A stretch of 64,000 nt of DNA, from the IMG/VR virus record IMGVR_UViG_3300007177_000114; one strand, 5' to 3'. Numbering within the stretch: position 1 is the stretch's first letter; the number at the start of each line of letters is the position of its first letter. Under the pieces are notes generated by a model. It saw only the letters and a list, made by a program, of their open reading frames with translations. It searched no databases and was not told where the DNA came from. The translations under genes and the position numbers were made by a program. This document shows positions 491 to 43,274 of the stretch, one piece after another. This stretch comes from a virus. Its lineage: Duplodnaviria; Heunggongvirae; Uroviricota; Caudoviricetes.

Positions 491-754
491 ATGTTAGTTG
501 CAACTACAATTGAAGAACTTCAAAATGAATGGCGTAATCCTTATCTACAATGGTATGCGGGCGGCATGCCAGCATTTAACACAAATGATATTTCTCCTTA
601 TAAGCAAATCAAACTTAAGTTTAAAACCTTAGAAGATAGACAAGCATTTGCAGAACTTACAGGATATTCATTGACAGAAAAAACAAATGTGATATGGTAT
701 CCAGATAAGGGTAGGGAGAAAAATATTATGAATAGGATTGTTGAAGATGAATGA
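491..754 (+). CDS. hypothetical protein
   Basis: ATG at 491 immediately after the upstream stop; same frame as track ORF 404..754. Confidence 0.45.
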   Translation: MLVATTIEELQNEWRNPYLQWYAGGMPAFNTNDISPYKQIKLKFKTLEDRQAFAELTGYSLTEKTNVIWYPDKGREKNIMNRIVEDE

Positions 755-1691
755 TGTGTTCAGTACACGTTATCCACTTTATATTATTTCTAAAGGTCGG
801 TGGGAATCACGCTATACTTCTAAAGCTCTAGAACGTATGGGTGTACCGTATTATATTGCGATCGAACCTCAAGAATATGAACAGTATGCTTCCGTTATTG
901 ATCCAAAAAAAGTTCTGACACTGCCTTTTTCTAATCATGGCAAAGGTTCAGGACCAGCCCGTAATTGGTGCTGGGAACATTCGCAGGCTAATGGATTCAA
1001 GCGTCACTGGCTTTTAGATGATAATATTTACGAATTTTGGAGATTCCATAATAATAAACGTTATAGAATCGAACGTGGTTCAGCATGCTTTAGATCAGTA
1101 GAAGATTTTGTTGATCGGTTTGAGAATGTGGCACTAGCAGGACTTCAATATAAGTTTTTCTGTGTGGATGATTATCCATATCCACCATACATTTTAAATA
1201 CTCGTATTATGTCTTGTTTTCTTATTGATAATGCTTGTCCACATAAATGGCGTGGTCGGTACAATGAGGACGTAGATCTTTCAATCCGTGTTCTGAAGGA
1301 TGGTCTGTGCACAATGCTTTTCTATTCTTTTCTGTGTGGTAAAGCAAGAACTGGCACTATTAAAGGTGGAAATACTTCAGAAATTTATAATAACTACCAA
1401 GAAGATGCATCACTAAAAAAGTCACAAATGTTGATGGAAATGCATCCTGATGTAGTGACTTTACAGGAAAGATATGGTAGAATACACCATCATGTTGATC
1501 TAGAAGCTATTGTGAATAAACATGGTCAACCTGCTCGACAAAATATGCCAATTCTCAAACAAGATGTAAAGATCTTCAATAAAATTGATAACTACGGAAT
1601 GAAACTAATTCGTGAGTTTGGCACAGATCAGGCTTATGAAGATAAAGAATACTCTATTGAGAAATATCCTTCAGGAAGGAAAAATTTTTAA
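747..1691 (+). CDS. hypothetical protein, possibly glycosyltransferase-like (DxD-type motifs HWLLDDN, NEDVDLS)
   Basis: First ATG of track ORF 738..1691; stop overlaps the next start (TAATG). Confidence 0.5.
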   Translation: MNDVFSTRYPLYIISKGRWESRYTSKALERMGVPYYIAIEPQEYEQYASVIDPKKVLTLPFSNHGKGSGPARNWCWEHSQANGFKRHWLLDDNIYEFWRFHNNKRYRIERGSACFRSVEDFVDRFENVALAGLQYKFFCVDDYPYPPYILNTRIMSCFLIDNACPHKWRGRYNEDVDLSIRVLKDGLCTMLFYSFLCGKARTGTIKGGNTSEIYNNYQEDASLKKSQMLMEMHPDVVTLQERYGRIHHHVDLEAIVNKHGQPARQNMPILKQDVKIFNKIDNYGMKLIREFGTDQAYEDKEYSIEKYPSGRKNF

Positions 1692-2650
1692 TGTCACGGA
1701 TCTTTATTACCGGTATTGCTGGTTTTATTGGCTTTCATCTAGCTCAAAAACTACGTGAAGCAGGACACGAAGTAACCGGTTTGGATAATTTCAACAATTA
1801 TTATGATGTGAAACTGAAGCACGATCGTCACAATATTCTACATAAAAAGAACATTCATGTTTATTATGGCGATTTACTAAATAAAAACTTTATTAAAAAT
1901 ATACTAAATGTGGAAAAACCAGAACTGGTAATCCATCTTGCAGCATATGCTGGTGTGCGCCATTCATATGATCATGCAATGGATTATATCCAAAATAATA
2001 TTGTGGGAACACAAACTCTTATTGAGGTTCTAGAAGAACTGAATATCAATAAAGCAATTTATGCCTCTACTTCATGTGTTATGGCTGGTAATTCTCTACC
2101 ATGGAAAGAAGATGAACCAACAGGCCATCAGTTAAATCCATATGGATATACTAAGCGCACAAACGAATGTCAGTTTAAAACTTCAAAGATTAAACAAAAT
2201 ATCGGACTTCGTTTCTTCACAGTTTATGGTCCTTATGGGCGTCCAGATATGGCACTTTTTCAATTTGCAGAAGCTGCTGTAAACGGCAAGACAATTGATG
2301 TATATAACTATGGTGATATGAAACGTGATTTCACTTACGTAGATGATATTGTGAATGGTATTGAAATTCTTATGAAGCATATTCTAAATACAGACAACGA
2401 ACAAGCAGAAATCTATAATATCGGTCGTGGTCAACAAGTACCGCTCATGGATTTTATTTCAGAAATTGAAAAAAATATGGGTCGAGAAATTCAAAAAAAT
2501 CTAGTACCTAGACACCCAGCCGATACCCTAGAAACTTGGTCGGACACCACAAAACTCCAAACACTTGGATGGAAACCAATGGTATCAATTGGTACTGGTG
2601 TTTCTAGATTTTGTGAATGGTACAAAAATTATTATGGAATTAATTCATGA
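1691..2650 (+). CDS. NAD-dependent nucleotide-sugar epimerase/dehydratase (UDP-glucuronate 4-epimerase-like)
   Basis: N-terminal Rossmann motif ITGIAGFIGFHL, catalytic YGYTK (YxxxK), 319 aa; translationally coupled to its neighbours. Confidence 0.75.
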   Translation: MSRIFITGIAGFIGFHLAQKLREAGHEVTGLDNFNNYYDVKLKHDRHNILHKKNIHVYYGDLLNKNFIKNILNVEKPELVIHLAAYAGVRHSYDHAMDYIQNNIVGTQTLIEVLEELNINKAIYASTSCVMAGNSLPWKEDEPTGHQLNPYGYTKRTNECQFKTSKIKQNIGLRFFTVYGPYGRPDMALFQFAEAAVNGKTIDVYNYGDMKRDFTYVDDIVNGIEILMKHILNTDNEQAEIYNIGRGQQVPLMDFISEIEKNMGREIQKNLVPRHPADTLETWSDTTKLQTLGWKPMVSIGTGVSRFCEWYKNYYGINS

Positions 2651-3477
2651 AATTAAATATTGCTATCGTTGGTCATGGTTTTGTAGGGAAAGCTGTAGAT
2701 TATGGCTTTCCCTCACAGAACTGTGATAAGTATATTGTGGATCCAAAACATGGTATGGACATTACAGCACTTCCACAAAATATGGATTATATTTTTGTTT
2801 GTGTTCCTACACCCATGGGTGATGATGGATCAATTGATTCTAATATTATTGAATCCGTAGTATCTTATCTACTTACAAATAATAATGGTGTCATTATTAT
2901 TAAATCCACTATAACACCAGAAATCTTAAAAAAGTTTGCAAATTCTAGAGTTGTTTACAACCCAGAATTTCTTACTGAAAAAAGTGCTAATGAAGATTTT
3001 GTAAATCCGTTTATGCATATTTTTGGTGGTCATCCACTTTATACGCAAAGGGTTGAAGAACTATATAAGTACTATAGTATTTGCAAGCCATGCCCAACTT
3101 ATCATATGTCGACAATTGAAGCAAGTTTTGTAAAGTATGGAATTAATTCGTTCCTTGCTACAAAAGTATTGTGGTTTAATCAATTATATGATATAATTCA
3201 AAAAGAAAATGCAAACTACGGTAAAATTATTAGTGCCATAACCACAGATTCTAGAGTAGGCAGATCACATACAACTGTTCCGGGATTTGACGGTAAACGT
3301 GGATATGGCGGGTCTTGTTTTCCAAAAGACACTCTTGCATTTGTAAAATATGCAAAGACATTGAAAAATGACTTTTCAGTGCTTGAAAAGGTGATACTTG
3401 AAAATAATAAGTATCGCAGTAAATACAAAAAAGATCAACGTGAAGTGGAACAAAATATTAGTTATGACACAAAATAA
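2647..3477 (+). CDS. UDP-glucose/GDP-mannose 6-dehydrogenase family protein, short form (276 aa)
   Basis: N-terminal IAIVGHGFVGKAV NAD-binding motif and catalytic-cysteine motif GGSCFPKDT; the C-terminal UDP-binding domain appears absent. Confidence 0.6.
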   Translation: MKLNIAIVGHGFVGKAVDYGFPSQNCDKYIVDPKHGMDITALPQNMDYIFVCVPTPMGDDGSIDSNIIESVVSYLLTNNNGVIIIKSTITPEILKKFANSRVVYNPEFLTEKSANEDFVNPFMHIFGGHPLYTQRVEELYKYYSICKPCPTYHMSTIEASFVKYGINSFLATKVLWFNQLYDIIQKENANYGKIISAITTDSRVGRSHTTVPGFDGKRGYGGSCFPKDTLAFVKYAKTLKNDFSVLEKVILENNKYRSKYKKDQREVEQNISYDTK

Positions 3478-3925
3478 TTGGGATAAAAAATATTTGAAAC
3501 TTGCTAAAGAAGTTTCAACATGGTCTAAAGATCCATCCAGTAAAATTGGTGCAGTTGCAGTAGGCAATCATGGTCAAATTTTAGCAACTGGATATAATGG
3601 GTTTCCTCGTAAAATTCAAGATTCAGAAGAACGTCTTAAAGATCGAGAAATCAAATATGCTTACACAATCCATGGCGAGATGAATTGCATATATAATGCA
3701 AGTCTTACTGGTGTAAGTTTAAACAAAGCAAATCTTTATGTATTCGGATTACCAGTTTGTTCGGAGTGTGCCAAAGGTGTAGTCCAAGTAGGTATTAAAA
3801 AAGTATTTGCCTGCCATCCTGTTATTATTAATACAAAATGGCAAGAATCAAATTATTTGAGCCAAATAATTTTTAAAGAAGCAGGTGTTGAATATAATAC
3901 TATTATTAATGATGGAGAACTATAA
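3464..3925 (+). CDS. cd: dCMP deaminase
   Basis: Zinc-binding motifs HGEMNCI and PVCSECAK typical of dCMP/CMP deaminases; internal ATG at 3464 overlaps the upstream stop. Confidence 0.75.
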   Translation: MTQNNWDKKYLKLAKEVSTWSKDPSSKIGAVAVGNHGQILATGYNGFPRKIQDSEERLKDREIKYAYTIHGEMNCIYNASLTGVSLNKANLYVFGLPVCSECAKGVVQVGIKKVFACHPVIINTKWQESNYLSQIIFKEAGVEYNTIINDGEL

Positions 3926-5757: not shown

Positions 5758-6411
5758 ATGAAACTAAGTGCTCGTACTCTACATCTACTTAAGAATTTTA
5801 GTACAATCAATCCCTCCATTGTTCTAAAACCAGGAGGGGTTGCGGCAACAATCTCTCCTAATAAAACTATTCTTGCTCGTGCATCTATCAGTGATGAAAT
5901 TCCAAATGTTGTAGCAATCTACAATTTAAGTCGATTTATTTCAACACTTTCACTATTTGAAAATCCTGACCTGGATTTTGGTGATAAGTCGGTTCGTATT
6001 TCAGATGGCAACCGCAGTGTAATTTATCATTATGCTGATGCATCAATTATTATGGTGCCACCTGAAAAACAAATTAAACTCCCATCAAATGATGCTGAAT
6101 GCTTTATTACAAATAAGGATTTTCAGAATATCACAAAGGCTCTAAGTGTTTTAGGTCTACCAGAAATTGCTATCGTTGGTGATGGTGAAAATATTTCACT
6201 TGAAGCTATTGACACCAAGAATCCAACTGCTGATACTTTCAGTATTGTTGTAGGTCAGTCTTCCAATGTTTTCCGTGCTATTTTCAAATCAGAAAATCTG
6301 AAGATTATGGACGGTGACTATACTGTAACTATTTCTTCAAAGGGAATCTCTCAGTTTGTAGGTACTGAGGTTTCTTACTGGATTGCTGTCGAGTCTACAT
6401 CTACTTTTTAA
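5758..6411 (+). CDS. 45: sliding clamp (T4 gp45-like)
   Basis: N-terminus MKLSARTLHLLKNFSTINPSIVLKPGG aligns with T4 gp45 MKLSKDTTALLKNFATINSGIMLKSG; 217 aa. Confidence 0.8.
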   Translation: MKLSARTLHLLKNFSTINPSIVLKPGGVAATISPNKTILARASISDEIPNVVAIYNLSRFISTLSLFENPDLDFGDKSVRISDGNRSVIYHYADASIIMVPPEKQIKLPSNDAECFITNKDFQNITKALSVLGLPEIAIVGDGENISLEAIDTKNPTADTFSIVVGQSSNVFRAIFKSENLKIMDGDYTVTISSKGISQFVGTEVSYWIAVESTSTF

Positions 6412-6471: not shown

Positions 6472-7410
6472 ATGCTTGAACATACACTATGGGTGGAAAA
6501 GTATCGACCAAAAAAGGTGGCTGATACTATTCTACCTTGTGATCTTAAATCAATCTTTCAGGGGTTTGTTAATGCTGGCAACATTAACAATATGACTTTA
6601 GCAGGTGGTGCTGGTGTTGGTAAAACAACAATTGCACGTGCAATGCTTGAGGAACTTGGTTGTGATTATATTATCATCAACGGTTCTATGAACGGTAATA
6701 TTGATACACTTCGCAATGAAATTCTTCAATTTGCTTCATCTGTTTCTCTTATGGGTGGTAGGAAGTATGTCATCCTTGATGAGGCAGATTATCTGAATCC
6801 AAATTCTACTCAGCCGGCTCTTCGTAATTTTATGGAAGAGTTTTCCAAGAATTGTGGGTTTATTCTTACATGTAATTTTAAAGATCGAATTATTAAACCA
6901 CTTCATTCTCGAGCACCAATTATTGAGTTTCGCATCCCAAAGAAAGAGATGCCAAAACTTGCCACGCAGTTTATGAAGCGTGTTGAAATGATTCTTGCTG
7001 CTGAGAATATAACTTATGATAAACAGGCAGTTGCTGAAGTTATCCAGAAGTTCTTCCCTGACTGGCGTAGAATCCTCAATGAACTACAAACATATTCTGT
7101 CAACGGGAAAATTGATTCTGGTATTTTTAGTTCTTTTACCGCTTCTACAGTTAAGGAAGTTATTGGTCATTGCAAGACTAAAAACCTAGAAGGTATTCGT
7201 AAGTGGATCCATGATAATTCTGATTCCGATTCAACTTCGATTTTTAGAGCTGTCTATGATAACTCTAGTGAACTATTCACAAAGCGTTCCATTCCTGCTC
7301 TAATTCTTAAGATTGCAGAATATCAGTACAAGGCGGCATTTGTTGCTGATGCTGAAATTAATCTTATGGCTTTCTTTGTTGAAGTTTGTATGGAGTGTGA
7401 ATTTGTATGA
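6472..7410 (+). CDS. 44: clamp loader large subunit (T4 gp44-like, RFC/AAA+)
   Basis: Walker A GGAGVGKTT, SRC-like region, 312 aa; position after gene 45 as in T4. Confidence 0.85.
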   Translation: MLEHTLWVEKYRPKKVADTILPCDLKSIFQGFVNAGNINNMTLAGGAGVGKTTIARAMLEELGCDYIIINGSMNGNIDTLRNEILQFASSVSLMGGRKYVILDEADYLNPNSTQPALRNFMEEFSKNCGFILTCNFKDRIIKPLHSRAPIIEFRIPKKEMPKLATQFMKRVEMILAAENITYDKQAVAEVIQKFFPDWRRILNELQTYSVNGKIDSGIFSSFTASTVKEVIGHCKTKNLEGIRKWIHDNSDSDSTSIFRAVYDNSSELFTKRSIPALILKIAEYQYKAAFVADAEINLMAFFVEVCMECEFV

Positions 7411-7880
7411 CTAAAACATCAACATTATTCGGTGTTGTAGAACATAGAGAAGAACCAACTGAAAAATCCACATTCAATGTGTGGAATTTCATTGGTGATA
7501 TTTCTAAAGACAAGCAGTATCTTCTAGATGATGATACTGTACGTCTATATGAACCATGGATTGTAAATAAATCATTTATGGCTCATCCGGATACTCTTGT
7601 ATTTGCAGAACAAGCCAATAGACTACACCATCTTGATAAAAAGATGCAGCATGATTTTATGTTCTATTCTGTTGAAGCACGAGCAAAAAGATTTAAACCT
7701 TGGCTGAAAAAGACGGAAGCAGAAAAGAAAGAACTGAAACTGCTACAAGATATTTCCAAAATTATAGGTTTAAATTTACAAAGAACAAAACAATTTTGGA
7801 AAATTTTGAATCCAGATCAACGCAAAGAGTTTATTGGTCGATATATTAACCCAGATTCTAAGAATGATAAAAGATCATAA
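7407..7880 (+). CDS. 62: clamp loader small subunit (gp62-like)
   Basis: Translationally coupled to gene 44 (ATGA overlap), 157 aa, position identical to T4 gene 62; weak similarity. Confidence 0.55.
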   Translation: MTKTSTLFGVVEHREEPTEKSTFNVWNFIGDISKDKQYLLDDDTVRLYEPWIVNKSFMAHPDTLVFAEQANRLHHLDKKMQHDFMFYSVEARAKRFKPWLKKTEAEKKELKLLQDISKIIGLNLQRTKQFWKILNPDQRKEFIGRYINPDSKNDKRS

Positions 7881-7918: not shown

Positions 7919-8314
7919 ATGACTATTCTAAATACATTTTTGGAGGTAAAACTAGCTGAAGAAGAAGACTTCTTAAAAGTTAAGGAGACTTTGACTCGAA
8001 TGGGTGTTGCCTCAAAGAAGGATAAAATCTTATATCAGTCCTGCCACATACTACACAAGCAGGGCCGATACTATGTTGTGCATTTTAAAGAACTTTTTGC
8101 TTTGGATGGTAAACCAACTAATTTTACAGATGAAGATCGCTCTAGAAGAAATACAATAGTTAGCCTTTTAGAGGAATGGAATTTAGTAAAAATTATGAAT
8201 AAAAAATTACTTGAAGATAAAATTCCACTAAATCAAGTGAAGATTATATCATTTAAGGAAAAAGATTCATGGCAATTAACCAGCAAATATAGTGTAGGCA
8301 AAAAGAAATTTTAA
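7919..8314 (+). CDS. regA: translational repressor RegA
   Basis: EEDFLKVKETLTRMGVASKKDKILYQSCHILHKQGRYYVVHFKE is nearly identical to T4 RegA PEDFLKVKETLTRMGIANNKDKVLYQSCHILQKKGLYYIVHFKE. Confidence 0.85.
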   Translation: MTILNTFLEVKLAEEEDFLKVKETLTRMGVASKKDKILYQSCHILHKQGRYYVVHFKELFALDGKPTNFTDEDRSRRNTIVSLLEEWNLVKIMNKKLLEDKIPLNQVKIISFKEKDSWQLTSKYSVGKKKF

Positions 8315-8329
8315 CGAAAGTAATATATT

Positions 8330-8668
8330 ATGTTTGGATGGTTTAAAAAGAAACCAAAACAATTAGGGGAAAAAGAACTCGAGCTGATTGCCCAAATTCT
8401 TTTTCCCCCACTTGAGACTAGAACTGATAAAGACGGAAATATCTATCAGATAGATAAATCAGTTGATACTAATTTAGAATCCGTCCTGTATGAACTGCAG
8501 GACGGAAACAATGATAGGATGTCCCATGACTCTTTGCATAGTGTCATAGGACGTCTTATTGAAGTGCGTAAAATTTTGGATGTCTATCCTGAATTAAACA
8601 AAAAGACAAAATATATAATTGTTGATGATGCTTCTTATAAGAAGTCTGCTACTGATTTTATAGAATAG
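8330..8668 (+). CDS. hypothetical protein
   Basis: 112-aa ORF. Confidence 0.45.
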   Translation: MFGWFKKKPKQLGEKELELIAQILFPPLETRTDKDGNIYQIDKSVDTNLESVLYELQDGNNDRMSHDSLHSVIGRLIEVRKILDVYPELNKKTKYIIVDDASYKKSATDFIE

Positions 8669-9053
8669 CATAACCATCATCAGTTGAATAAACTACATTT
8701 TTAATGTTGAAATTAACAATGGCTCGCATACAACCCGGGCAGGGCTTGGCAAGACCATTCTTTTCAAGCCCATTTACCTTCTTGCTACGATAGATATAAA
8801 GTGTACTGCGCTTCAAATCATCAACGCTAGTGCACTTCAAAGCATTCTTAATGGCATCAATTTCTGCATGAAGAAAAATGCATTCCTCATTCTTGCCAAA
8901 CTTGGCTTGAAAGGGATGACTTTTCCTCTTATTAAAGCCAAATGAGAGGATATTATTCTTGAGAACTATACACGAAGATACCCTGGCGCCTGCCACCTTT
9001 TCAATGGAAGTGGCAAGCTTAGCCAGGGTATTCAAGTAATGATCGTGCTTCAT
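8658..9053 (-). CDS. cytidine/deoxycytidylate deaminase-family zinc-binding protein
   Basis: Motifs HAEIDAI and PCPGCMRAI (H-x-E ... PCxxC); driven by a minus-strand copy of the conserved early promoter. Confidence 0.6.
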   Translation of the reverse strand: MKHDHYLNTLAKLATSIEKVAGARVSSCIVLKNNILSFGFNKRKSHPFQAKFGKNEECIFLHAEIDAIKNALKCTSVDDLKRSTLYIYRSKKVNGLEKNGLAKPCPGCMRAIVNFNIKNVVYSTDDGYAIL

Positions 9054-9058
9054 AATAT

Positions 9059-9088
9059 CCTTATAACCCTATCCGGGATTAAAGTCAA
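9059..9088 (-). promoter_or_regulatory. conserved early promoter (TTGACT-N17-TATAAG), minus strand
   Basis: Reverse complement reads TTGACTTTAATCCCGGATAGGGTTATAAGG, followed by the ATG of the deaminase-like gene. Confidence 0.5.
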
Positions 9089-9270: not shown

Positions 9271-9480
9271 TTAATTCTTATGCTTAGCGGCACAGGCCTG
9301 TGCCCATTCGATATTCTCTTGAATATTCTTTTCAAGAGCAATCTTTTGCTTCTTAGTGAGCTTGATATCCGGATTTTGCATCAGATCGCCGATTAGACCT
9401 TTCAGCCATCCGATGGCATAGTCCGAGCCAACGTCACACCTGAGAATATCGGTCAGTTCGTCGAGACGGTCACGGATCAT
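9271..9480 (-). CDS. hypothetical protein
   Basis: Start set at the ATG following the conserved leader (MIRDRL...); track ORF 9271..9501. Confidence 0.45.
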   Translation of the reverse strand: MIRDRLDELTDILRCDVGSDYAIGWLKGLIGDLMQNPDIKLTKKQKIALEKNIQENIEWAQACAAKHKN

Positions 9481-9507
9481 GTTTTGTCCCTCATTCATCA
9501 TAGTGTC

Positions 9508-9536
9508 TTTATACCACCTGGTTGGATTAAAGTCAA
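9508..9536 (-). promoter_or_regulatory. conserved early promoter, minus strand
   Basis: Reverse complement reads TTGACTTTAATCCAACCAGGTGGTATAAAG. Confidence 0.5.
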
Positions 9537-9905
9537 CCCAAGGAAATCAATGGGTTAGCGCTAAGTGGTTGATTTAATTACATAATATTTTTACAAAAAA
9601 ATTTAGCTAAACTTATCAATGGGTTAATTAGATCATCGTTTAAGTCGTGCTAGGTAGGCTTGGATGGGTTATCATACCGCTGAGGTGGCTTAGACTGCCG
9701 AGAACTGTCGTGAGCATCTAACCCATTGATATCATTGACTTTTATAAAACAGCTAACCTATTGAAAAGATTAGGTTTTATGCATATCCCTCATGGAACTG
9801 ATGTCGTCAGCTTACCGTTGGTGCAAAAAAGTTCAAAAAAGTTTTATAATCTTTTCAATGGGTTATGCCCATACTGATGCTAACCCATTGATATGTCACG
9901 GTTGA
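9536..9905. repeat. iteron/operator-like region A: multiple TCAATGGGTTA motifs in both orientations, including 26-bp palindromes
   Basis: Motif copies near 9550, 9617, 9662, 9723, 9752, 9852 and 9876; region is homologous to 26478..26880 and 42587..42950. Confidence 0.6.
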
Positions 9906-9930
9906 CTTTTAAACCAGGTTGCGGTATAAA
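9902..9930 (+). promoter_or_regulatory. conserved early promoter (TTGACTTTTAAACCAGGTTGCGGTATAAAG)
   Basis: -35 TTGACT at 9902-9907, 17-bp spacer, -10 TATAAA at 9925-9930; conserved leader GACTATGGACAAGGGATCAAACATG. Confidence 0.55.
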
Positions 9931-9954: not shown

Positions 9955-10179
9955 ATGACCGACTCTAGCGTTACGATCATTGAGTCTTACTGTGAATTTA
10001 ATGATCGGGTTACGGAAAATTTTTATGAAAATTTCACCCCAGATGATTGGTCTTACATCATCATTGCTGAGGATAAGGATGTTGCAATTAAGACTGCTGA
10101 AATGCTGCACCCTAGGGCAATTGATGTTGAGATTGCAAAGATCGGTGAAGAATTTTGGGTGGTAACTTACCATAGCTGA
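9955..10179 (+). CDS. hypothetical protein
   Basis: ATG at 9955 (MTDSSV...) preceded by AAGGGA; the MRYKETM prefix in the track is translated promoter sequence. Confidence 0.5.
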   Translation: MTDSSVTIIESYCEFNDRVTENFYENFTPDDWSYIIIAEDKDVAIKTAEMLHPRAIDVEIAKIGEEFWVVTYHS

Positions 10180-12126: not shown

Positions 12127-12348
12127 ATGATAAATATGGCTACTGAATCCAAAATTAATATGCTTTTTCGGGCTTTACTTGATCGTTCGGAGTCTTTGAC
12201 TGCACGACAAATTGCTGCTCGATATAGGATTTCCAATCCTTATGATCTAATTTATCGCCTTCGTAATGAAGGGATTAAAATTGAACGGCTAAAAACGACA
12301 AATAGTCGTGGTAAAATTGTATATCGCTATTCTTGGGGTGGAGTTTAA
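12127..12348 (+). CDS. small helix-turn-helix DNA-binding protein
   Basis: AAGGAA RBS; SLTARQIAARYRISNPYDLIYRLRNEGIKIE looks like an HTH/winged-helix; driven by TTGACA-N17-TAAAAT at 12084. Confidence 0.5.
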   Translation: MINMATESKINMLFRALLDRSESLTARQIAARYRISNPYDLIYRLRNEGIKIERLKTTNSRGKIVYRYSWGGV

Positions 12349-12611: not shown

Positions 12612-13154
12612 ATGTACTATACTATTTATAAAATTACTAATAAACTTAACGGCAACTTTTATATCGGTAAACATAAGACCAAGAATCTAGATGATGGTTA
12701 TATGGGGTCCGGTAAACTTATTAGGGCAGCCATAAATAAATATGGTATTGAAAATTTTGAGAAAGAAATACTTGAAATTTTTGATACTGAAGAAGAAATG
12801 AATGAAGCCGAAAAAAGATATGTTGTTCTAGGTGAAGGAAGTTATAATCTTTGCCCTGGTGGGCAAGGTGGTTGGGGTTATATTAACCAAAATAATTTGG
12901 GTGGTACTTTAGGTAAAAAACACTCCAATGAAACTAAAACTAAAATAGCTTTATCTGTTAAAAATATTATGTTAAACGAAAGAAGATATGAATTAACTTC
13001 CTGGTGTTTAAAAAATGGGAATGGAATGTTAGGTAAAAAACATTCCCACGAAACTAAGGCTAAAATGTCAGGACCACGTGGAAAATATAACGTTAACAAA
13101 GCTGGTATTAAACGTGGTCCATATAAAAAGAAAAATATAGAATATTCCTCGTGA
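12612..13154 (+). CDS. GIY-YIG homing endonuclease (Seg-like)
   Basis: N-terminal YYTIYKITNKLNGNFYIGKH (GIY-YIG motif); paralog at 21914..22567; the stop lies inside the 5' end of the downstream tRNA. Confidence 0.8.
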   Translation: MYYTIYKITNKLNGNFYIGKHKTKNLDDGYMGSGKLIRAAINKYGIENFEKEILEIFDTEEEMNEAEKRYVVLGEGSYNLCPGGQGGWGYINQNNLGGTLGKKHSNETKTKIALSVKNIMLNERRYELTSWCLKNGNGMLGKKHSHETKAKMSGPRGKYNVNKAGIKRGPYKKKNIEYSS

Positions 13155-16749: not shown

Positions 16750-16774
16750 TATAAATACTCCTATAATAAGGAGT
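16750..16774 (+). promoter_or_regulatory. late promoter box TATAAATA plus RBS-sequestering hairpin CTCCT-ATAATA-AGGAG
   Basis: TATAAATA at 16750-16757; the AAGGAG Shine-Dalgarno of the HNH gene forms the 3' arm of the hairpin. Confidence 0.5.
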
Positions 16775-16781
16775 GTTACAT

Positions 16782-17222
16782 ATGGAACAAAAACATAATA
16801 TTGATGATTCTGTGTATATTGAAGCCTACTATAGGTTAAAAACTATCGGTAAAATAGCTCATGAATTGGGCGTACCTGACGTAACAGTATGGAGAAGATG
16901 TAAAAAACTTGGTTTAAGTTTTAAAAATGGTGGGCAAAATAAAGATAAAAGAAGAAATCAAACCAAATTTCTTCTTGAAGATATATTAAATGGATTACAC
17001 CCACAATATCCAACTGTTAAACTTAAAAATAGACTTATTAAAGAAAATAAAATAGAATATAAATGTTCTTTATGTTCCATAAAAGAATGGAATTCGAAAG
17101 AATTAACACTTCATCTAGATCATATAGATGGTAATCCAAAAAATCACAATCTAAATAATTTAAGATTGTTATGTCCTAATTGTCATTCTCAAACTGATAC
17201 ATGGTGTGGTAAAAATAAATAA
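16782..17222 (+). CDS. HNH homing endonuclease
   Basis: C-terminal HLDHIDGNPKNHNLNNLRLLCPNCHSQ (HNH with zinc-ribbon cysteines); ATG at 16782 after AAGGAG. Confidence 0.7.
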   Translation: MEQKHNIDDSVYIEAYYRLKTIGKIAHELGVPDVTVWRRCKKLGLSFKNGGQNKDKRRNQTKFLLEDILNGLHPQYPTVKLKNRLIKENKIEYKCSLCSIKEWNSKELTLHLDHIDGNPKNHNLNNLRLLCPNCHSQTDTWCGKNK

Positions 17223-21913: not shown

Positions 21914-22567
21914 ATGCACTATACTATTTATAAAATTACTAATAAGATTAACGGTAACTTTTATATCGGCAAACATAAGACCAAAAATTTAGATGATGGT
22001 TATATGGGTTCTGGTAAACTTATAAAAGCAGCCATAAAAAAATATGGTAAAGAAAATTTTACAAAAGAAATACTTGAATTTTTTGATACTGAAGAAGAAA
22101 TGAATGAAGCCGAAAAAAGATATGTTGTTTTAGGTGAAGGTAGTTATAATATATGTCCCGGTGGCCAAGGTGGTTGGGGTTATATTAATAATAGCGGATT
22201 AAATTGGACCCCAGAAAAAAATAAAAGAATAAGTGGGTTTAAAAACTTTACCCTTGAACAAAGAAGATACTATGCTGTAGTTAATAAATCTCATTTATAT
22301 ATTGAAAAATACCGTGAAAATGTTAAATTAGGATTAGCTAATCCACCAAAAAGACATAGACCTATGTCGGAAGAACATAGAAATAAAATTGGAAAAGCAA
22401 ATTCTATTAAGCAAAAAGGATCATTAAATTCCCAATTTGGAATAAGATTTAAGTGGATGAACAAAAATAATATAAATAAAAAAGTTCCTTTACAAGAAAC
22501 TAATGATTATTTAAGTAATGATTGGGTTTTTGGTAGATCTAAATCCAATTCAACTATGCTGATATAG
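21914..22567 (+). CDS. GIY-YIG homing endonuclease (Seg-like), paralog of 12612..13154
   Basis: HYTIYKITNKINGNFYIGKH; N-terminal 100 aa about 85% identical to the first copy; stop inside the next tRNA. Confidence 0.8.
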   Translation: MHYTIYKITNKINGNFYIGKHKTKNLDDGYMGSGKLIKAAIKKYGKENFTKEILEFFDTEEEMNEAEKRYVVLGEGSYNICPGGQGGWGYINNSGLNWTPEKNKRISGFKNFTLEQRRYYAVVNKSHLYIEKYRENVKLGLANPPKRHRPMSEEHRNKIGKANSIKQKGSLNSQFGIRFKWMNKNNINKKVPLQETNDYLSNDWVFGRSKSNSTMLI

Positions 22568-23531: not shown

Positions 23532-23576
23532 CCATCAACTCCATAAAATTTGATGATATATTTAGGAATTAATGAT

Positions 23577-23927
23577 ATGATGACTTTGGGTAAACATCTT
23601 ATCTTAGAATTATGGGGAGCTCAAGGCTCCCTTCCCTTTTGGCAGATGGATGAAGCTGCCGAAGTACTTAAAAGAGCAGCTATTGATGCTGGTGCTACAG
23701 TTTTATCTGAAAGATGGCATCACTTTGGCGATGGTTGTGGATATACTGGAGTTGTGGTTCTATCAGAAAGTCATATATCCGTTCACACCTGGCCAGAGCA
23801 CGGTTATGCAGCACTTGATATATTTGTTTGCGGTCATGCAGATCCCATGCTTGCTATTCCTGCTATAGAAAAGTTTTATAGACCGACCGAAAAAACTATA
23901 ACTCTTCTAGAAAGAGGCAAAAAATAA
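23577..23927 (+). CDS. speD: S-adenosylmethionine decarboxylase proenzyme (SpeD, class 1)
   Basis: Motif VLSESHISVHTWPEHGYAALDIFVCG (processing serine and ExH); AGGA RBS before ATG 23577. Confidence 0.75.
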   Translation: MMTLGKHLILELWGAQGSLPFWQMDEAAEVLKRAAIDAGATVLSERWHHFGDGCGYTGVVVLSESHISVHTWPEHGYAALDIFVCGHADPMLAIPAIEKFYRPTEKTITLLERGKK

Positions 23928-26105: not shown

Positions 26106-26429
26106 TTAGTCGCAATTGAGCGTCACGTGCAGGTCGTGGCCGTCCAGCTTGGCATTCCAACCGTCAACGATGAAGCCCGGGGAGCAGCCGCATCCGCAAC
26201 CAGCCTTCTGGCTCCACTTGATGCTCAGCTTGGATCGGTCGATCTCGAGCTTGTCCAGCGCCTTGAAAGCACCCTCACGGAACAGACCAATCGGACGGCT
26301 ACGGCGGTTGGTGAGATTGTCAAACAGCGTCTCACCCTCAGGCCAGATGTAGATGCGGGTCTTGATCTTATATCCGTTGCGCCGAGGGTTGGCCATGGGG
26401 ATCAGTCGAGTCTCAGTGATGTTCAGCAT
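26106..26429 (-). CDS. hypothetical protein
   Basis: Start MLNITE after the conserved leader; 107 aa. Confidence 0.5.
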   Translation of the reverse strand: MLNITETRLIPMANPRRNGYKIKTRIYIWPEGETLFDNLTNRRSRPIGLFREGAFKALDKLEIDRSKLSIKWSQKAGCGCGCSPGFIVDGWNAKLDGHDLHVTLNCD

Positions 26430-26453
26430 ATCAGCTTCCTTGTTCATAGTCAC

Positions 26454-26482
26454 TTTATACCGCAACCTGGTTTAAAAGTCAA
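26454..26482 (-). promoter_or_regulatory. conserved early promoter, minus strand
   Basis: Reverse complement TTGACTTTTAAACCAGGTTGCGGTATAAAG, identical to the plus-strand copy at 26874. Confidence 0.55.
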
Positions 26483-26880
26483 CCGTGACAAATCAATAGG
26501 TTAGTCTGGTCTGGTGGCTAACCTATTGAAAAGATTATCAAAAAATTTTTTCGCTTATCCAAAAAAAATTTCAAAAAAGTTTGAGTGTCCAGGTTACCAG
26601 GCGCTCATAGAACCATAAAATGAATGATATCAATGGGTTAGCTCTATCCACAAAGTCAATGATATCAATGGGTTAGGCTAAGAGAACGGCTCACATCGTG
26701 CTAAATCTGCTTGAATGGGTATACCATAGGCCTAACCTCAAGCTAGAACGGCATCCATGCTAACATATTGATATCATTTAACTTGCATTTTTTTCAAAAA
26801 AATGCAAGTGGTCAAACTGAATCATATCAATGGGTTATGGATCACGGTTAGCTAACCCATTGATTTCCTTAGGTTGACTT
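26478..26880. repeat. iteron/operator-like region B
   Basis: TCAATAGGTTA-N15-TAACCTATTGA and TCAATGGGTTA-N15-TAACCCATTGA inverted pairs plus further single motif copies; flanked by divergent conserved promoters. Confidence 0.6.
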
Positions 26881-26902
26881 TTAAACCAGGTTGCGGTATA
26901 AA
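26874..26902 (+). promoter_or_regulatory. conserved early promoter
   Basis: TTGACTTTTAAACCAGGTTGCGGTATAAAG plus leader TGACTATGAACGAGGTGACAAACATG. Confidence 0.55.
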
Positions 26903-26926: not shown

Positions 26927-27088
26927 ATGACCGATGATAAAGCTTTCCGAATCCGTCAGGCCCTCAAGGAGACAACTTATCTCCTTAACAAGGAGCTGGA
27001 GTATCCGGTCGGGTTGCAGAAGGCTGATATGGTCGCCTTTTATCGTCGGCATATTGCTACCCTGACCGCCCGGCTCAAAAATCTGTAA
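26927..27088 (+). CDS. hypothetical small protein
   Basis: ATG 26927 (MTDDKAFRIRQ...) after the conserved leader RBS. Confidence 0.45.
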   Translation: MTDDKAFRIRQALKETTYLLNKELEYPVGLQKADMVAFYRRHIATLTARLKNL

Positions 27089-27096
27089 GATACGTA

Positions 27097-27125
27097 TTGA
27101 CTTTAATTCCAAGTTGAGTTATAAG
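27097..27125 (+). promoter_or_regulatory. conserved early promoter (TTGACT-N17-TATAAG)
   Basis: TTGACTTTAATTCCAAGTTGAGTTATAAG. Confidence 0.5.
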
Positions 27126-27439: not shown

Positions 27440-27468
27440 TTGACTTTAATTCCAAGTTAAGTTATAAG
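27440..27468 (+). promoter_or_regulatory. conserved early promoter
   Basis: TTGACTTTAATTCCAAGTTAAGTTATAAG, near-identical to 27097. Confidence 0.5.
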
Positions 27469-29484: not shown

Positions 29485-30012
29485 ATGAACAAGAATTTTG
29501 TTATTCTTCCAGTTGCCGCTCTGCTTCTAGCGGGTTGTCTACCAGATAATAAGTCTACACAACCACAAGTGAAGAACACTCAAGCTGAACTAGCACAACG
29601 TGCTGCTAATTCAATTCAGTTCACTGATAATGCTGAAATTGAAAATATCAAGAATCGAGTGGAACTTACCAGTAAGCCTGGTCTTCTAGGTTATGTGGTT
29701 CTTTTCAATGAATCTGGTCAGCCTATTATGTATGAAGGTGTTCGAGGTAAGATTACTTCTGGTTCTAAGCGTCTAACTCCTGCCGATCGTACTCAACAGA
29801 TCAGCACCGGTGGTACTAATGGTGGTCAACATTCTGTAGTTCGTCAGGCACCTTCTGATGAAGGAACATACGGTACTTCCAATCCGTATATTTTCTACTG
29901 GAATATTGATGGTGTCTATCGACAGTGGAGTGGCCACTACCTCTATTCAACCCAGCCAATGCGCCTTACAATTCAGCCGCTGGTCGTGAATATTGAGGAA
30001 AAGAAGCAATAA
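29485..30012 (+). CDS. lipoprotein
   Basis: Signal peptide with lipobox LLLAGC. Confidence 0.55.
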   Translation: MNKNFVILPVAALLLAGCLPDNKSTQPQVKNTQAELAQRAANSIQFTDNAEIENIKNRVELTSKPGLLGYVVLFNESGQPIMYEGVRGKITSGSKRLTPADRTQQISTGGTNGGQHSVVRQAPSDEGTYGTSNPYIFYWNIDGVYRQWSGHYLYSTQPMRLTIQPLVVNIEEKKQ

Positions 30013-30464
30013 TGAGTTATACCATTTCAATTGGTTGTGATCACGCTGGGCTTGAATTAGCCCAGCAAATCTCAGTATGGCTTTTTGATGCTGGACACAA
30101 GATTTATACTTTCTTTCCAGCACCAAATACTCGAGTTGATTATCCAGATTATGCTTATAAAACATGTTCATCTATAACTCTGGGTTCACATGGTTCAAGT
30201 CGGGGAATTTTAGTTTGCGGATCCGGTGTTGGTATGGCTATAGCCGCAAATCGACATAGTGGGATTCGATGTGTAAATACAAATGATCCAAATATTGCTA
30301 AGATTGCACGAGAACACAATGATGTAAATACTCTTGCACTTGGCGCTCGTTTTGTCACCGATAAAGAAGAAATCTGGAAGTGTATCACAACATTTCTAGA
30401 TACTAAATACGAAGGTGGTCGACACGAACAACGAGTTATGAAACTATTTGGAGTTTTTCCATGA
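30012..30464 (+). CDS. rpiB: ribose-5-phosphate isomerase B (RpiB/LacAB family)
   Basis: SIGCDHAG N-terminus and ILVCGSGVGMAIAANR motif; 150 aa. Confidence 0.7.
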   Translation: MSYTISIGCDHAGLELAQQISVWLFDAGHKIYTFFPAPNTRVDYPDYAYKTCSSITLGSHGSSRGILVCGSGVGMAIAANRHSGIRCVNTNDPNIAKIAREHNDVNTLALGARFVTDKEEIWKCITTFLDTKYEGGRHEQRVMKLFGVFP

Positions 30465-31426
30465 AATTCGTAATTACAGGACTTACAGCAGTTCTTTTAG
30501 CAACTTCTGCGCATGCTCAATCTTTAAATGGTGCTGGTGCTACATTTCCAGCACCACTTTATACAAAATGGGCAGAATTATCTAATAAAGATGGATTTAC
30601 AGTTAATTACCAAGCAGTAGGTTCAGGTGCTGGTCAAAATCAAATCATTAATCGCACAGTCGATTTTGGCGCTTCAGATGCACCACTTTCTAAACAACGC
30701 TTGATGGATAATAATCTAATTCAAATTCCAACAGTGCTTGGATCAGTTGTGGTTATTATTAATCTTCCTGGGATCGAGACTAATAAACTTCGTATTTCTG
30801 GACGAAATTTAGTCGACATTTATTCCGGTAAAATTACAAAATGGAATGATTCACGGATTGTTGCTGATAATCCAGATATCAAATTACCTAATATTGCAAT
30901 TGCACCAGTTTATAGAGCCGATGGTTCTGGAACAACATTTGTCTTTGTATCTTATTTACATTCACAAGATAAAAACTTTAGTGCTCCAGCCACATCTATT
31001 AAATGGTCAATTGGAACTGGCGCTCGTGGGAATGACGGTGTGGCTGCTTCAGTAAAAAGAACCGTCGGATCAGTCGGTTACGTAGAGAGTGTTTTTGCTA
31101 AGAACGGTAATATCCCTAAAGCTGTTCTCATGAGTGGGACAGGCAAATGGATTGTTTCCGGTAGCGCTTCATATTCAGCATCAGCAAATAAGATCGAATG
31201 GTCCGAAACTAACGAAGGATCCGCTATCAATCTTCCTTGTGATGAATGCTATCCTATTGTATCTGCAACTTATATTCTTATCCCAGCTGAATCTAAAAGA
31301 TTGAACGATGTTGTTTCTTGGGTAAATTGGGTATATAAAAATGGCAATGCAGCTGCAATTTCCCTTGACTATATTCCACTTTCGGATTATACTAAGGGTA
31401 GGGTAATTCAACAATTTAATAAGTAA
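30461..31426 (+). CDS. pstS: phosphate ABC transporter substrate-binding protein PstS
   Basis: Signal peptide then GAGATFPAPLYTKWAE, the PstS hallmark; 321 aa. Confidence 0.8.
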   Translation: MKFVITGLTAVLLATSAHAQSLNGAGATFPAPLYTKWAELSNKDGFTVNYQAVGSGAGQNQIINRTVDFGASDAPLSKQRLMDNNLIQIPTVLGSVVVIINLPGIETNKLRISGRNLVDIYSGKITKWNDSRIVADNPDIKLPNIAIAPVYRADGSGTTFVFVSYLHSQDKNFSAPATSIKWSIGTGARGNDGVAASVKRTVGSVGYVESVFAKNGNIPKAVLMSGTGKWIVSGSASYSASANKIEWSETNEGSAINLPCDECYPIVSATYILIPAESKRLNDVVSWVNWVYKNGNAAAISLDYIPLSDYTKGRVIQQFNK

Positions 31427-33923: not shown

Positions 33924-33998
33924 GCAGATGTGATGTAATGGTTAGCAAAACGATCTCTAAAATCGTGTGTCAGGGTTCAATTCCCTGCATCTGCACCA
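33924..33998 (+). tRNA. amber-suppressor-type tRNA (anticodon CTA, reads UAG)
   Basis: Perfect acceptor GCAGATG/CATCTGC plus A plus CCA; D arm TGT-AATGGTTA-GCA; anticodon arm ACGAT-CTCTAAA-ATCGT (perfect 5 bp, U33, A37); T arm CAGGG-TTCAATT-CCCTG. Confidence 0.65.
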
Positions 33999-34959: not shown

Positions 34960-35058
34960 AGGATGGTTTCAGCAAACCATTATAGTAGCTCAATGGATGA
35001 GCAAGTGTCATCAAAACACTCGGTGTAGGTTCGAATCCTACCTAAAAAACACCATCCT
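34960..35058 (+). ncRNA. Y-RNA-like unit 3 with embedded tRNA-like domain (D arm, TCA anticodon-like hairpin, T arm GTAGG-TTCGAAT-CCTAC)
   Basis: Stem AGGATGG/CCATCCT; TTTCAGCAA motif; internal GCTC-AATGGAT-GAGC, AGTGT-CATCAAA-ACACT and a canonical T arm; no acceptor pairing of its own. Confidence 0.45.
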
Positions 35059-42256: not shown

Positions 42257-42307
42257 GATTACCTCATAACGTGATACTTGTGGTTATATCCCAATCTGAG
42301 ATTAAAG

Positions 42308-42532
42308 TCAATCGGTAATTTCACGCTTGGAGATGCGCTGCCACTTCTTCCGAGGCTTGCGCCCGGCGCTACCGTCGTAATAGCCATCCTCGTCAAACGA
42401 CGTGCGCCCACCCAGATGCGACAGATTGGTCTTCCGCCTGGACCGCTTCGACATCTTGTCTGCCGAGCTGTGGTAGCGCCCATCCGAGGCGATCGTCACG
42501 TTCATCTTATCCATAGTCCCACCAAAAGTCAT
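42308..42532 (-). CDS. hypothetical basic protein
   Basis: Start at the ATG after the conserved leader (MTFGGTMDKM...). Confidence 0.45.
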   Translation of the reverse strand: MTFGGTMDKMNVTIASDGRYHSSADKMSKRSRRKTNLSHLGGRTSFDEDGYYDGSAGRKPRKKWQRISKREITD

Positions 42533-42559
42533 CTTAGTTACCTCATTCATCATAGTGTC

Positions 42560-42588
42560 TTTATACCACCTGGTCGGATTAAAGTCAA
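42560..42588 (-). promoter_or_regulatory. conserved early promoter, minus strand
   Basis: Reverse complement TTGACTTTAATCCGACCAGGTGGTATAAAG. Confidence 0.5.
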
Positions 42589-42950
42589 CCCAAGGAAATC
42601 AATACGTTAGCCTTAACCCATTGAAAAGATTATAAAAACTTTTTTGAACTTTTTTGCATGGGTTTGGCGAGCAGCAGGAGCTCGACATCATTAAGACGGT
42701 AAAACTTAATCTTTTCAATAGGTTAGCATATCCTCAGAATGTAAGGAAATCAATGGGTTAGGCTATAAGAACGGCTCTCGGCAGTCTAAGTCACCTAAGC
42801 GGTATGATAACCCTCTTAGAACCGCTTAGACTGCCGAGAGCCCGGCATAGATGCTAACCCATTGAAAAGATTATATACTGAAAAAAAGTTCAAAAAATAT
42901 TTTCAATCATATCAATCACTTAGCGCTAACCCATTGATATCATTAGGTTG
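42587..42950. repeat. iteron/operator-like region C
   Basis: TCAATACGTTA-GCCT-TAACCCATTGA, TCAATCACTTA-GCGC-TAACCCATTGA and further TCAATGGGTTA / TAACCCATTGA copies; hairpin CTCGGCAGTCTAAG...CTTAGACTGCCGAG; shares the 17-nt prefix AACCCAAGGAAATCAAT with region A. Confidence 0.6.
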
Positions 42951-42976
42951 ACTTTTAAATTAGGTTGAGGTATAAA
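42948..42976 (+). promoter_or_regulatory. conserved early promoter
   Basis: TTGACTTTTAAATTAGGTTGAGGTATAAAG plus leader GACTATGAACAAGGTGACAAACATG. Confidence 0.55.
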
Positions 42977-43000: not shown

Positions 43001-43237
43001 ATGACCGACTCCACCGACCGCCTCCTCGGCTGCATCCGTATCTCGCCCGAGGGTGAGTACCACCCCGGCAAGTACACCATCGAGACGTTCGGCTACTGGA
43101 ACCAGGATGAACCGTCCTGGGGCATGCCGGCATGGGACGAGCGTGGGTGGTCTGAGTTTGCCACCCACTTCGACTCTTATGCCATGGCCGAGAAGGCTAT
43201 TGCGGATTCGTGGTGGAATCCGGATTGGATCGCCTAA
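43001..43237 (+). CDS. hypothetical protein
   Basis: ATG 43001 (MTDSTDRLLGCIRISPEGEY...). Confidence 0.5.
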   Translation: MTDSTDRLLGCIRISPEGEYHPGKYTIETFGYWNQDEPSWGMPAWDERGWSEFATHFDSYAMAEKAIADSWWNPDWIA

Positions 43238-43245
43238 AACTTCTG

Positions 43246-43274
43246 TTGACTTTAATCTCAGCTGATGGTATAAA
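43246..43274 (+). promoter_or_regulatory. conserved early promoter
   Basis: TTGACTTTAATCTCAGCTGATGGTATAAAG. Confidence 0.5.

Follow-up and report, generated by a model that had tools for sequence, protein, structure and literature searches.

Repeated palindromic modules with a conserved, IHF-like 12-bp site between divergent early promoters of an uncultivated T4-like phage

The DNA analysed here, a 64-kb window (IMG/VR record IMGVR_UViG_3300007177_000114), is part of a 161-kb metagenome contig from a distant T4-like myovirus, freshwater and uncultivated. It contains three non-coding modules, each of about 360-400 bp and each lying between divergent early-type promoters, in which an asymmetric 12-bp site recurs at set distances. 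What the sequences show directly is that the sites are present, how they are conserved and spaced, where they stand with respect to the promoters, and that a transcript or RNA signature is lacking. We propose, in a reading for which we hold the balance to be even, that the three regions are paralogous copies of a cis-regulatory hub specific to the clade, each serving as a multi-site platform from which one DNA-binding architectural protein would control both early promoters.

The modules occupy positions 9537..9901 (module 1), 26483..26873 (module 2) and 42589..42947 (module 3). Each spacer as a whole is a large imperfect palindrome, module 3 folding back on itself nearly end to end; single-strand DNA folding against shuffled controls gives z = -5.1, -8.2 and -12.4, respectively. 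The original prediction had described three mutually similar regions, and self-BLAST bears this out, with homology over the spacer and about 60 bp of promoter and leader, to which the similarity is limited. Over its full length, module 1 can be aligned to module 3 in reverse complement (69% identity); the two have unrelated flanking genes. The modules are old, diverged paralogues. Duplication of a single locus during assembly is ruled out by the 69-86% identity of the paralogues and by their unique flanks. Each region is bounded, as had been claimed, by a divergent pair of conserved promoters: 9508..9536 (minus strand) and 9902..9930 (plus strand) around module 1, 26454..26482 (minus) and 26874..26902 (plus) around module 2, and 42560..42588 (minus) and 42948..42976 (plus) around module 3. 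Their pattern, TTGACT-N17-TATAAA, matches the window 14 times against 1.2 expected, and 11 of the 14 matches belong to cassettes around the modules that are 80-90% identical over about 60 bp including the leader. The pattern equals TTGACTTT-N15-TATAAAG; the spacer of 17 originally placed between TTGACTTT and TATAAAG was too long by two.

Within the modules, one motif stands out. With at most one mismatch, TCAATGGGTTA has 17 matches in the window, all of them within 9547-9891, 26493-26863 and 42614-42937 (6, 6 and 5), whereas 1.82 are expected by chance and the maximum in 100 dinucleotide shuffles is 6; the predicted excess over background is therefore real. Adding degenerate copies that keep TCAA-N4-TTA or ATGGGT brings the count to 8, 8 and 7-8 sites per region, which bears out the 6-8 copies first reported. 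The conserved unit is an asymmetric 12-bp site, TCAATGGGTTAG, with the extended form CCTAATCWTWTCAATGGGTTAGG, and many copies carry a conserved 5' extension, CCTAATC-WTW-TCAATGGGTTAGG. The site is used singly, in tandem and inverted, in mixed orientation. This revises the view of the copies as perfect 26-bp palindromes typical of dimeric helix-turn-helix repressors. All three head-to-head pairs with a 4-bp spacer (N4; 9547-9572, 42599-42624 and 42912-42937) are imperfect, one arm being degenerate (TCAACCACTTA, TCAATACGTTA and TCAATCACTTA), always in the form TCAAYCACTTA or TCAATACGTTA. The perfect-armed pairs are those with a 15-bp spacer (N15; 9855-9891, 26493-26529 and 26827-26863), and they span 37 bp.

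Relatives of the modules were gathered by exact-pattern scans of IMG/VR and JGI metagenomes, by polymerase-guided retrieval and by exact-protein contig look-ups. Dozens of lake-metagenome contigs (IMG/VR, JGI/ENA) carry modules, and 20 distinct modules (<97% identical), window copies included, are left after removal of near-duplicates. Contigs long enough to judge belong to the same T4-like clade, either having 20-35 genes in common with the window or carrying T4 RNase H. Orthologues of each window module lie at syntenic positions in related contigs: L001, L009 and L015 for module 1, L010 for module 2, and L016/L022, L017, L025, L030 and L033 for module 3, the last set about 5 kb upstream of the DNA polymerase gene. 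Among six aligned module-3 orthologues, from phages whose polymerases are 77-96% identical to that of the window, 63% of the site columns are invariant, against 21% of the other spacer columns and 22% of the promoter columns. At the level of sequence, the invariance of the sites is a clear phylogenetic footprint, and conservation of the motif in related genomes, the lack of which would have counted against the original prediction, holds across the 20 distinct modules. No N15 pair was found in a scan of 185,579 bacterial species genomes. The perfect N4 pair, TCAATGGGTTA-N4-TAACCCATTGA, had one match in the same genomes, on a contig of a Nitrospirae metagenome-assembled genome (VBOM01000203.1; L034 2868-2920), for which the chance estimate is about 0.03-0.07 given 22 specified bases. 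There TTAGGTTGA follows six bases on, as in the promoter-proximal sites of the phage, and the opposite strand carries what appears to be the 5' part of a tRNA gene; ARAGORN finds no tRNA, and the surrounding genes are unrelated and GC-rich.

The spacings of the sites are quantised. In the 20 distinct modules, head-to-head pairs 26 bp apart start to start (N15) occur 14 times and those 15 bp apart (N4) 6 times; tandem pairs of exactly 35 bp occur 17 times, and sites 100-105 bp apart are found 14 times. Between the N15 and N4 pairs the difference is 11 bp, one helical turn, and the sequences between paired sites are unconserved. The innermost site lies 10-11 bp from the -35 element (TTGAC) in 30 cases. 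In the subclade of L071 and L072, direct reading of the sequence gives a gap of 21 bp on both sides, one helical turn more, next to promoters that have drifted to TTGACT/TTGCTA-N17-TAAGAT. Since the step from 10-11 to 21 bp amounts to one turn, the helical face is preserved. The implication is that the site is coupled to RNA polymerase on one particular side of the helix.

Leftmost among the elements of module 1 is an imperfect head-to-head N4 pair, TCAATGGGTTA-GCGC-TAAGTGGTTGA (9547..9572), placed 10 bp from the left -35. It continues with a single plus-strand site, TCAATGGGTTA (9616..9626), and a central degenerate plus-strand site, TGGATGGGTTA (9661..9671), within the conserved centre GGATGGGTTATCATACC, an element that is also central in the modules of relatives. 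A minus-strand tandem pair with sites 35 bp apart start to start (9719..9764; 9719-9729 and 9754-9764) and phased A6 tracts (AAAAAAGTTCAAAAAA, 9825..9840) precede a head-to-head N15 pair with perfect arms (9855..9891), 10 bp from the right -35. The elements of module 2 run from an N15 pair with both arms in the variant form TCAATAGGTTA (26493..26529) through phased A/T tracts (26540..26578), a plus-strand 35-bp tandem pair (26630..26675), a central quasi-palindrome GAATGGGTATACCAT (26712..26727) and a minus-strand variant site TCAATATGTTA (26761..26771) to a perfect-armed N15 pair (26827..26863), again 10 bp from the right -35. It also contains a perfect 29-bp A/T-rich palindrome, ACTTGCATTTTTTTCAAAAAAATGCAAGT (26781..26809), which is not present in modules 1 and 3. 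Module 3 has imperfect N4 pairs near both ends, TCAATACGTTA-GCCT-TAACCCATTGA (42599..42624) and TCAATCACTTA-GCGC-TAACCCATTGA (42912..42937), the latter kept imperfect in orthologues. Between them lie phased A5/T6/T6 tracts (42634..42655), a plus-strand 35-bp tandem pair (42715..42760), a central dyad with 16-bp arms (CTCTCGGCAGTCTAAG and CTTAGACTGCCGAGAG, 42775..42840), a single minus-strand site (42855..42865) and phased A7/A6 tracts (42881..42897).

Two features recur between the sites. Phased tracts of A5-8, 10-12 bp apart, keep their phasing in relatives as their sequence drifts. The centre of the modules is a motif-like quasi-palindrome, GGATGGGTAT(A/C)CCATC or GGATGGGTTATCATACC, with CTAAG/CTTAG repeats on its flanks. 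The central dyad symmetry is retained in relatives with different arm sequences, which fits either selection for symmetry or concerted evolution of both arms. The CTAAG/CTTAG repeats (CTWAG) are fivefold enriched in the modules (7.35 per kb versus 1.5 per kb in the window) and cluster around the central dyad, for example at 42780-42840 and at 5370-5440 of L025; they may represent either a half-site (TTAG) of the main motif or a site for a second protein. In scans of the modules with consensus sequences for DnaA, CtrA, NtcA, CRP and Fis no enrichment was detected, CTWAG alone being enriched.

The likeness of the motif core to an IHF site is new in this analysis. The IHF consensus is WATCAANNNNTTR (PMC9452768, PMC10380432). 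Together with one or two flanking bases, the module site reads A/T-ATCAA-TGGG-TTA, an exact match to this consensus. Fifteen of the 24 matches to WATCAANNNNTTR in the window fall inside the three modules, compared with a mean of 7 in shuffled sequence; one of them is the full core TATCAATATGTTA at 26761-26773, which covers the variant site of module 2. The remaining sites depart from WATCAANNNNTTR only at position 2 (T for A) or at N positions. The distinct modules, 8.8 kb in all, contain 116 instances of TCAA-N4-TTA, against about 3 estimated by chance; 43 of the 116 have a centre other than TGGG. By contrast, only 7 of 80 copies of TGGGTTA come without TCAA. As TCAA-N4-TTA is kept with varied centres, the constraint is shaped like the IHF consensus. 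The 5' flank is A/T-rich, positions -1 to -3 being W in about 90% of unique sites, with AA frequent at -6/-7 and -11/-12. The geometry is also suggestive: the 35-bp tandem spacing corresponds roughly to one IHF footprint, as judged from the IHF-H' complex. By the same geometry, N15 pairs could hold two IHF molecules, and N4 pairs would overlap, which would fit the one weakened arm of the latter.

The window also encodes a candidate binder of its own. The rightward early operon encodes, 2.2 kb downstream of module 1, a 70-aa winged-helix protein (12136..12348, plus strand; Pfam HTH_39, E = 9e-7). Overall identity among its homologues is 57-77%, but in the helix-turn-helix stretch, LTARQIAARYRVSNPYDLIYRLRNEG, they hardly differ. 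Modules are present at four of the five fetched loci bearing such homologues, and the fifth (L070) starts about 110 bp upstream of the gene, too short to show a module. This co-occurrence is confounded by shared ancestry, and on sequence comparison the protein counts as a lead. A PDB sequence search with it returned no match. Pfam searches of nearly all window open reading frames (ORFs) gave no DNA-binding candidates besides this protein and homing endonucleases. If the modules are hubs of the proposed kind, a phage-encoded binder seems to us nearly an even prospect; an IHF-type protein of the host is possible, with a somewhat lower probability, and some other host factor would be an unlikely choice.

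In outline, the hub would be a 360-400 bp stretch of untranscribed DNA between back-to-back sigma-70-type early promoters that head divergent arrays of small, GC-richer accessory genes, and its working parts would be the 7-8 asymmetric sites, the phased A-tracts and the central dyad. We infer that a protein binds the sites, and its identity and the sign of its effect are likewise a matter of inference. Several copies of one sequence-specific DNA-bending protein would occupy the sites, and the kept spacings and curved A-tracts would let them fold the roughly 400-bp spacer into one higher-order complex. With the promoter-proximal site on a fixed helical face, at about -51 (or -62 in the L071 subclade), such a complex could touch the UP-element/-35 zone of both innermost promoters and set their activity jointly, either boosting them or switching them in time. 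Activation is suggested by the helical phase kept across the change of gap from 10 to 21 bp, which by analogy would be typical of activators contacting the alpha C-terminal domain of the polymerase. Occlusion is suggested by the reach of an IHF-sized footprint, which in these orientations would extend to the -35. Sites are not required for promoter function as such. Because other copies of the promoter cassette are without sites, the hub would modulate promoter activity and not create it. A need for some such device also follows from the relatives of the phage. Pelagi- and cyanomyophages are without alt, mod, asiA and motA (PMC7029224), and no Pfam match to these families was found in the window; since these genes are lacking in the groups that supply its nearest catalogued polymerase matches (48%), another device for early control would be needed.

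Several observations weigh against this reading, in particular against its IHF variant. The four N positions are TGGG in 73 of the 116 sites (63%) and TAGG in 13 of 116, and TTA is followed by G in 74 of 88 (84%); both preferences go beyond what IHF needs and are conserved across lineages. About one-third of the sites read TTTCAAT instead of WATCAAT. In the N4 pairs, which overlap, there is no room for an IHF-sized footprint on both arms, and 7-8 sites per 400 bp is far denser than the IHF regions described. A tblastn search of the window and of 472 kb of related loci, with E. coli HupA, IhfA and IhfB as queries, detected no HU or IHF gene. The hint as to the host is limited to the phage PstS, which is closest to alphaproteobacterial PstS at about 50% identity and would be compatible with an IHF-bearing host; the relatives of an outer-membrane beta-barrel protein of the phage are found only in phage contigs. 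As for the hub in general, other copies of the promoter cassette carry no site, L025 and L033 have no left promoter-proximal site, the proposed binder stands at the stage of a candidate drawn from sequence, and the modules may have a second role as origins.

The original prediction had left the choice between a regulatory hub and a replication-origin-like element. Both are kept here as hypotheses, and the evidence leans to regulation, because the gap between site and -35 is fixed and helically phased, no initiator gene is present and there is no DnaA box. If the modules were early replication origins, which we regard as unlikely, an initiator or architectural protein would bind the repeats, divergent transcription would supercoil the spacer, the A/T tracts would open or the palindrome extrude, and a replisome would load. 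Strong divergent transcription would drive negative supercoiling into the spacer (the twin-domain model), and the modules do lie at points where transcription diverges and the cumulative GC skew dips. Short minus-strand gene clusters, however, explain the dip. Several dispersed copies per genome would recall the five origins of T4, where oriE has 12-nt iterons and oriE, oriF and oriG are found at divergent transcription (PMC3016281), and IHF-type sites are common in origins (PMC10380432). Yet the sites of the modules occur in both orientations and form no direct iteron array, being in tandem only as 35-bp pairs, and the module promoters point away from the A/T tracts, unlike T4 oriF and oriG, which combine a promoter with a downstream unwinding element (R-loop). 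The A/T-rich phased tracts and the strong dyad symmetry (z = -5 to -12) would suit an origin; the tracts are equally readable as curved upstream DNA in a genome of 36% GC. No Pfam or PHROG match of the initiator, Rep, O or DnaA-like kind adjoins any module, no DnaA boxes occur within them, and the fixed, helically phased gap to the -35 is not needed by an origin. Origin and regulatory roles are compatible. A fuller combination of them, a new class of dual-purpose 'enhanceosome/origin' in which IHF-type bends and the supercoiling from divergent promoters would fold and open the 400-bp palindrome, fire the early arrays, provide multi-copy origins and dock foreign cassettes, seems less probable still than the origin alone.

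Other explanations dispense with a bound protein. The modules could be hubs of recombination and gene shuffling, or remnants of a mobile palindromic element, with repeats that have no protein-binding role, which we consider rather improbable. On both sides of each module, ORFans stand next to conserved promoter-leader cassettes of about 60 bp that recur nearby, module ends are inverted repeats, the GC-richer flanks suggest foreign origin, and metagenome contigs frequently stop at modules. Neighbouring genes are shuffled: L002 and L014 place a homologue of the left gene of module 1 beside homologues of the left genes of module 2. PeSL-mediated shuffling is documented in T4-type phages (PMC2839356, PMC4122927), and a shuffling role for the promoter-leader cassettes is plausible. 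But homology alone suffices for recombination, which leaves the invariant 12-bp islands, the exact spacings and the helical phasing to the -35 unexplained. Moreover, relatives with 77-96% polymerase identity keep the modules stably and in synteny, and those covering the locus show no transposase, target-site duplication, empty site or presence/absence polymorphism. A structured non-coding RNA, or a role solely through a DNA cruciform, is hardly credible. The fold energies are strongly above those of shuffled controls and the central dyad has a few apparently compensatory changes, but the predicted pairing consists mostly of inverted motif copies, the covariation term is unfavourable (+2.6 kcal/mol), and gene conversion alone predicts co-evolution of the arms in a large inverted repeat. 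Searches of Rfam at gathering and at E-value thresholds returned only three sub-threshold matches to microRNA precursors, in the dyad of module 3 (22.3-23.7 bits against gathering thresholds of 54-88), all other matches being to tRNAs outside the modules. Predictions of internal promoters and terminators gave none that was conserved across the modules, with a promoter scanner that demands T at the last -10 position and misses the real promoters. With no Rfam match at a meaningful score and no consistent internal promoter or terminator, we argue for a role at the DNA level.

The modules lie in a part of the genome that is itself variable. In T4, regA and gene 43 are adjacent. In the window about 40 kb of hyperplastic DNA (8330-48178) separates regA (7919-8314), which follows the genes for the gp45 clamp (5758-6411) and the gp44/62 clamp loader (6472-7880), from the gp43 polymerase gene (48179-50689), beyond which UvsX and a gp41-like helicase are recognisable by Pfam. 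This stretch contains all three modules, 28 tRNA genes, homing endonucleases, auxiliary metabolic genes and many ORFans. Seg-like GIY-YIG paralogues are encoded at 12612-13154 and 21914-22567, an HNH endonuclease at 16773-17222, SpeD at 23550-23927, RpiB at 30012-30464, PstS at 30461-31426, NMNAT-NUDIX at 37343-38338, NAMPT at 38351-39736 and Hsp20 at 46697-47146. The GC-richer surroundings that had been noted around the modules are confirmed: compared with about 0.33-0.38 in the rest of the window, GC content is 0.43-0.47 between 25 and 28 kb and between 41 and 44 kb, and 0.39-0.40 between 9 and 11 kb. The first genes on either side vary from module to module and are unrelated ORFans, for which PHROGs are uninformative: 9271..9501 (minus strand, likely start 9480) and 9955..10179 (plus) at module 1, 26106..26447 (minus) and 26927..27088 (plus) at module 2, and 42308..42553 (minus) and 43001..43237 (plus) at module 3. 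Additional cassettes of promoter, Shine-Dalgarno sequence and start codon, about 60 bp each, are found at 9060-9088 (minus), 27097-27125 (plus), 27440-27468 (plus), 42283-42311 (minus) and 43246-43274 (plus). They are PeSL-like, precede successive small ORFans on either side of the modules, and in several cases have a short palindrome within the -35/-10 spacer. No further modules were found in the 10 kb past each end of the window, as judged from near-identical contigs, where core T4 genes lie. The full genome nevertheless probably has more than three, because another module type occurs in L003/L004, a contig with T4 RNase H; the sample from which it came also gave a contig with a protein identical to one encoded in the window.

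The phage itself has few close relatives in the databases. Exact-protein look-up finds proteins identical to those of the window in JGI, ENA and Logan data only; no deposited phage polymerase exceeds 48% identity to its family-B enzyme, cyanomyoviruses being nearest, and module 1 with its surroundings had no nucleotide match among 50,697 phage records by megablast and blastn. A few features of its genes are recorded here in their own right. The tRNA arrays (12472-37273) include two suppressor-type anticodons, CTA (reading UAG) and TCA (reading UGA), at 33924-33998 and 34979-35050; both genes also match Rfam tRNA (59 and 50 bits), and the long ORFs of the window are normal under code 11. A 476-aa protein with DUF2828 and DUF7788 domains is encoded among the tRNA genes (35582-37012), and DUF2828 is presumably TROVE/Ro60-like. 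A gene cluster at 738-3925 and 8658-9053 suggests DNA hypermodification: it encodes TAGT (TET-associated glycosyltransferase, 738-1691), an NAD-dependent epimerase (1691-2650), a UDP-glucose dehydrogenase (2647-3477), two dCMP deaminases and a DUF3310 protein, and no TET/JBP gene was seen within the 64-kb window. Just past the position of the right end of the window, a near-identical relative (L067 15337-18841) has a gene for the large subunit of ribonucleotide reductase interrupted by an intein and a GIY-YIG endonuclease gene.

T4-like phages outside the T-even group, among them the cyano- and pelagimyophages nearest to this phage in the catalogues, are without AsiA, MotA, Alt and Mod, and the modules bear on the timing of early transcription and on the sites of replication start in such phages. 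The element that the clade supplies has sharp outlines: its site is 12 bp long, its spacings are fixed, and each genome has three copies or more. Were host IHF to bind it, a T4-type phage would be recruiting a host nucleoid protein for islands of accessory genes; were a phage protein to bind it, that protein would be a new early regulator. In lake metagenomes, the motif can further serve as a practical marker for the clade and its hyperplastic regions, and the repeated modules explain why assemblies of these phages break at these points.

Among known systems, the closest mechanistic analogue may be the p4/p6 region of phi29, as a likeness of working and not of membership. The target of phi29 p4 is AACTTTTT-15 bp-AAAATGTT (PMC1904284), and small proteins bind there cooperatively, bend the DNA to a hairpin and control both promoters, with A-tracts aiding recognition (PMC3100819, PMC1904284). 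Like the modules, this region has inverted repeats at a spacing of exactly 15 bp between divergent promoters (PMC3100819, PMC1904284); N15 inverted pairs between divergent promoters number three in the window and 14 in the 20 distinct modules. By contrast, the sequence of the site is unrelated, both module promoters are of early type where phi29 has an early and a late one, each genome has three or more module copies, and the site also occurs singly and in tandem. Pfam gave no p4 or p6 family among the window ORFs. The layout of the modules also recalls the Fis sites upstream of rrnB P1, an array of nucleoid-protein sites in an upstream activating region: in both, helically phased sites for a bending protein and curved A-tracts would lie upstream of strong sigma-70 promoters. 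The modules differ from it in their motif, their divergent palindromic layout and their phage context.

The original prediction had stated that nothing like these regions exists in T4, which goes too far, as T4 and its relatives offer partial analogues in the 12-nt iterons of oriE, in origins at points of divergence (PMC3016281) and in PeSLs (PMC2839356, PMC4122927). T4 oriE resembles the modules in having a repeated motif of about 12 nt that is kept in relatives, near early promoters and at a transcription strand switch of a T4-type phage. Its iterons, however, are evenly spaced direct repeats at one locus whose own function is unproven (PMC3016281), whereas here the sites are in mixed orientation in at least three paralogous palindromic modules, at a non-syntenic place between regA and gene 43. 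PeSLs are conserved promoter cassettes found in the hyperplastic regions of T4-type phages (PMC2839356, PMC4122927). The promoters bounding the modules are similar in their leaders with conserved Shine-Dalgarno sequence and start codon, in the cassettes of about 60 bp beside ORFans and in the hyperplastic setting. Of the six innermost promoters, four have directly upstream an N15 pair that can form an 11-bp stem (-14 to -16 kcal/mol). These stems have no G/C runs or T-tails, no transcription enters them from upstream, and the other cassettes are without such stems, whereas a PeSL stands singly between tandem genes and has a terminator stem with G/C runs (PMC2839356, PMC4122927). No counterpart of a multi-site spacer of 360-400 bp between divergent promoters was found in the descriptions of PeSLs or of the T4 origins (PMC2839356, PMC4122927, PMC3016281). 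Compared with IHF sites, finally, the modules share the exact core, variants that differ mainly at N positions and an A/T-rich 5' flank, and stand apart by the conserved TGGG and following G, the T at position 2 and the high density. IHF sites, iterons, PeSL cassettes and arrays of protein sites that separate divergent promoters belong to known kinds of element; what is new is a palindromic, multi-copy module, proposed here as a hub, in which a 12-mer of IHF consensus stands at quantised spacings and is conserved through an uncultivated T4-like clade.

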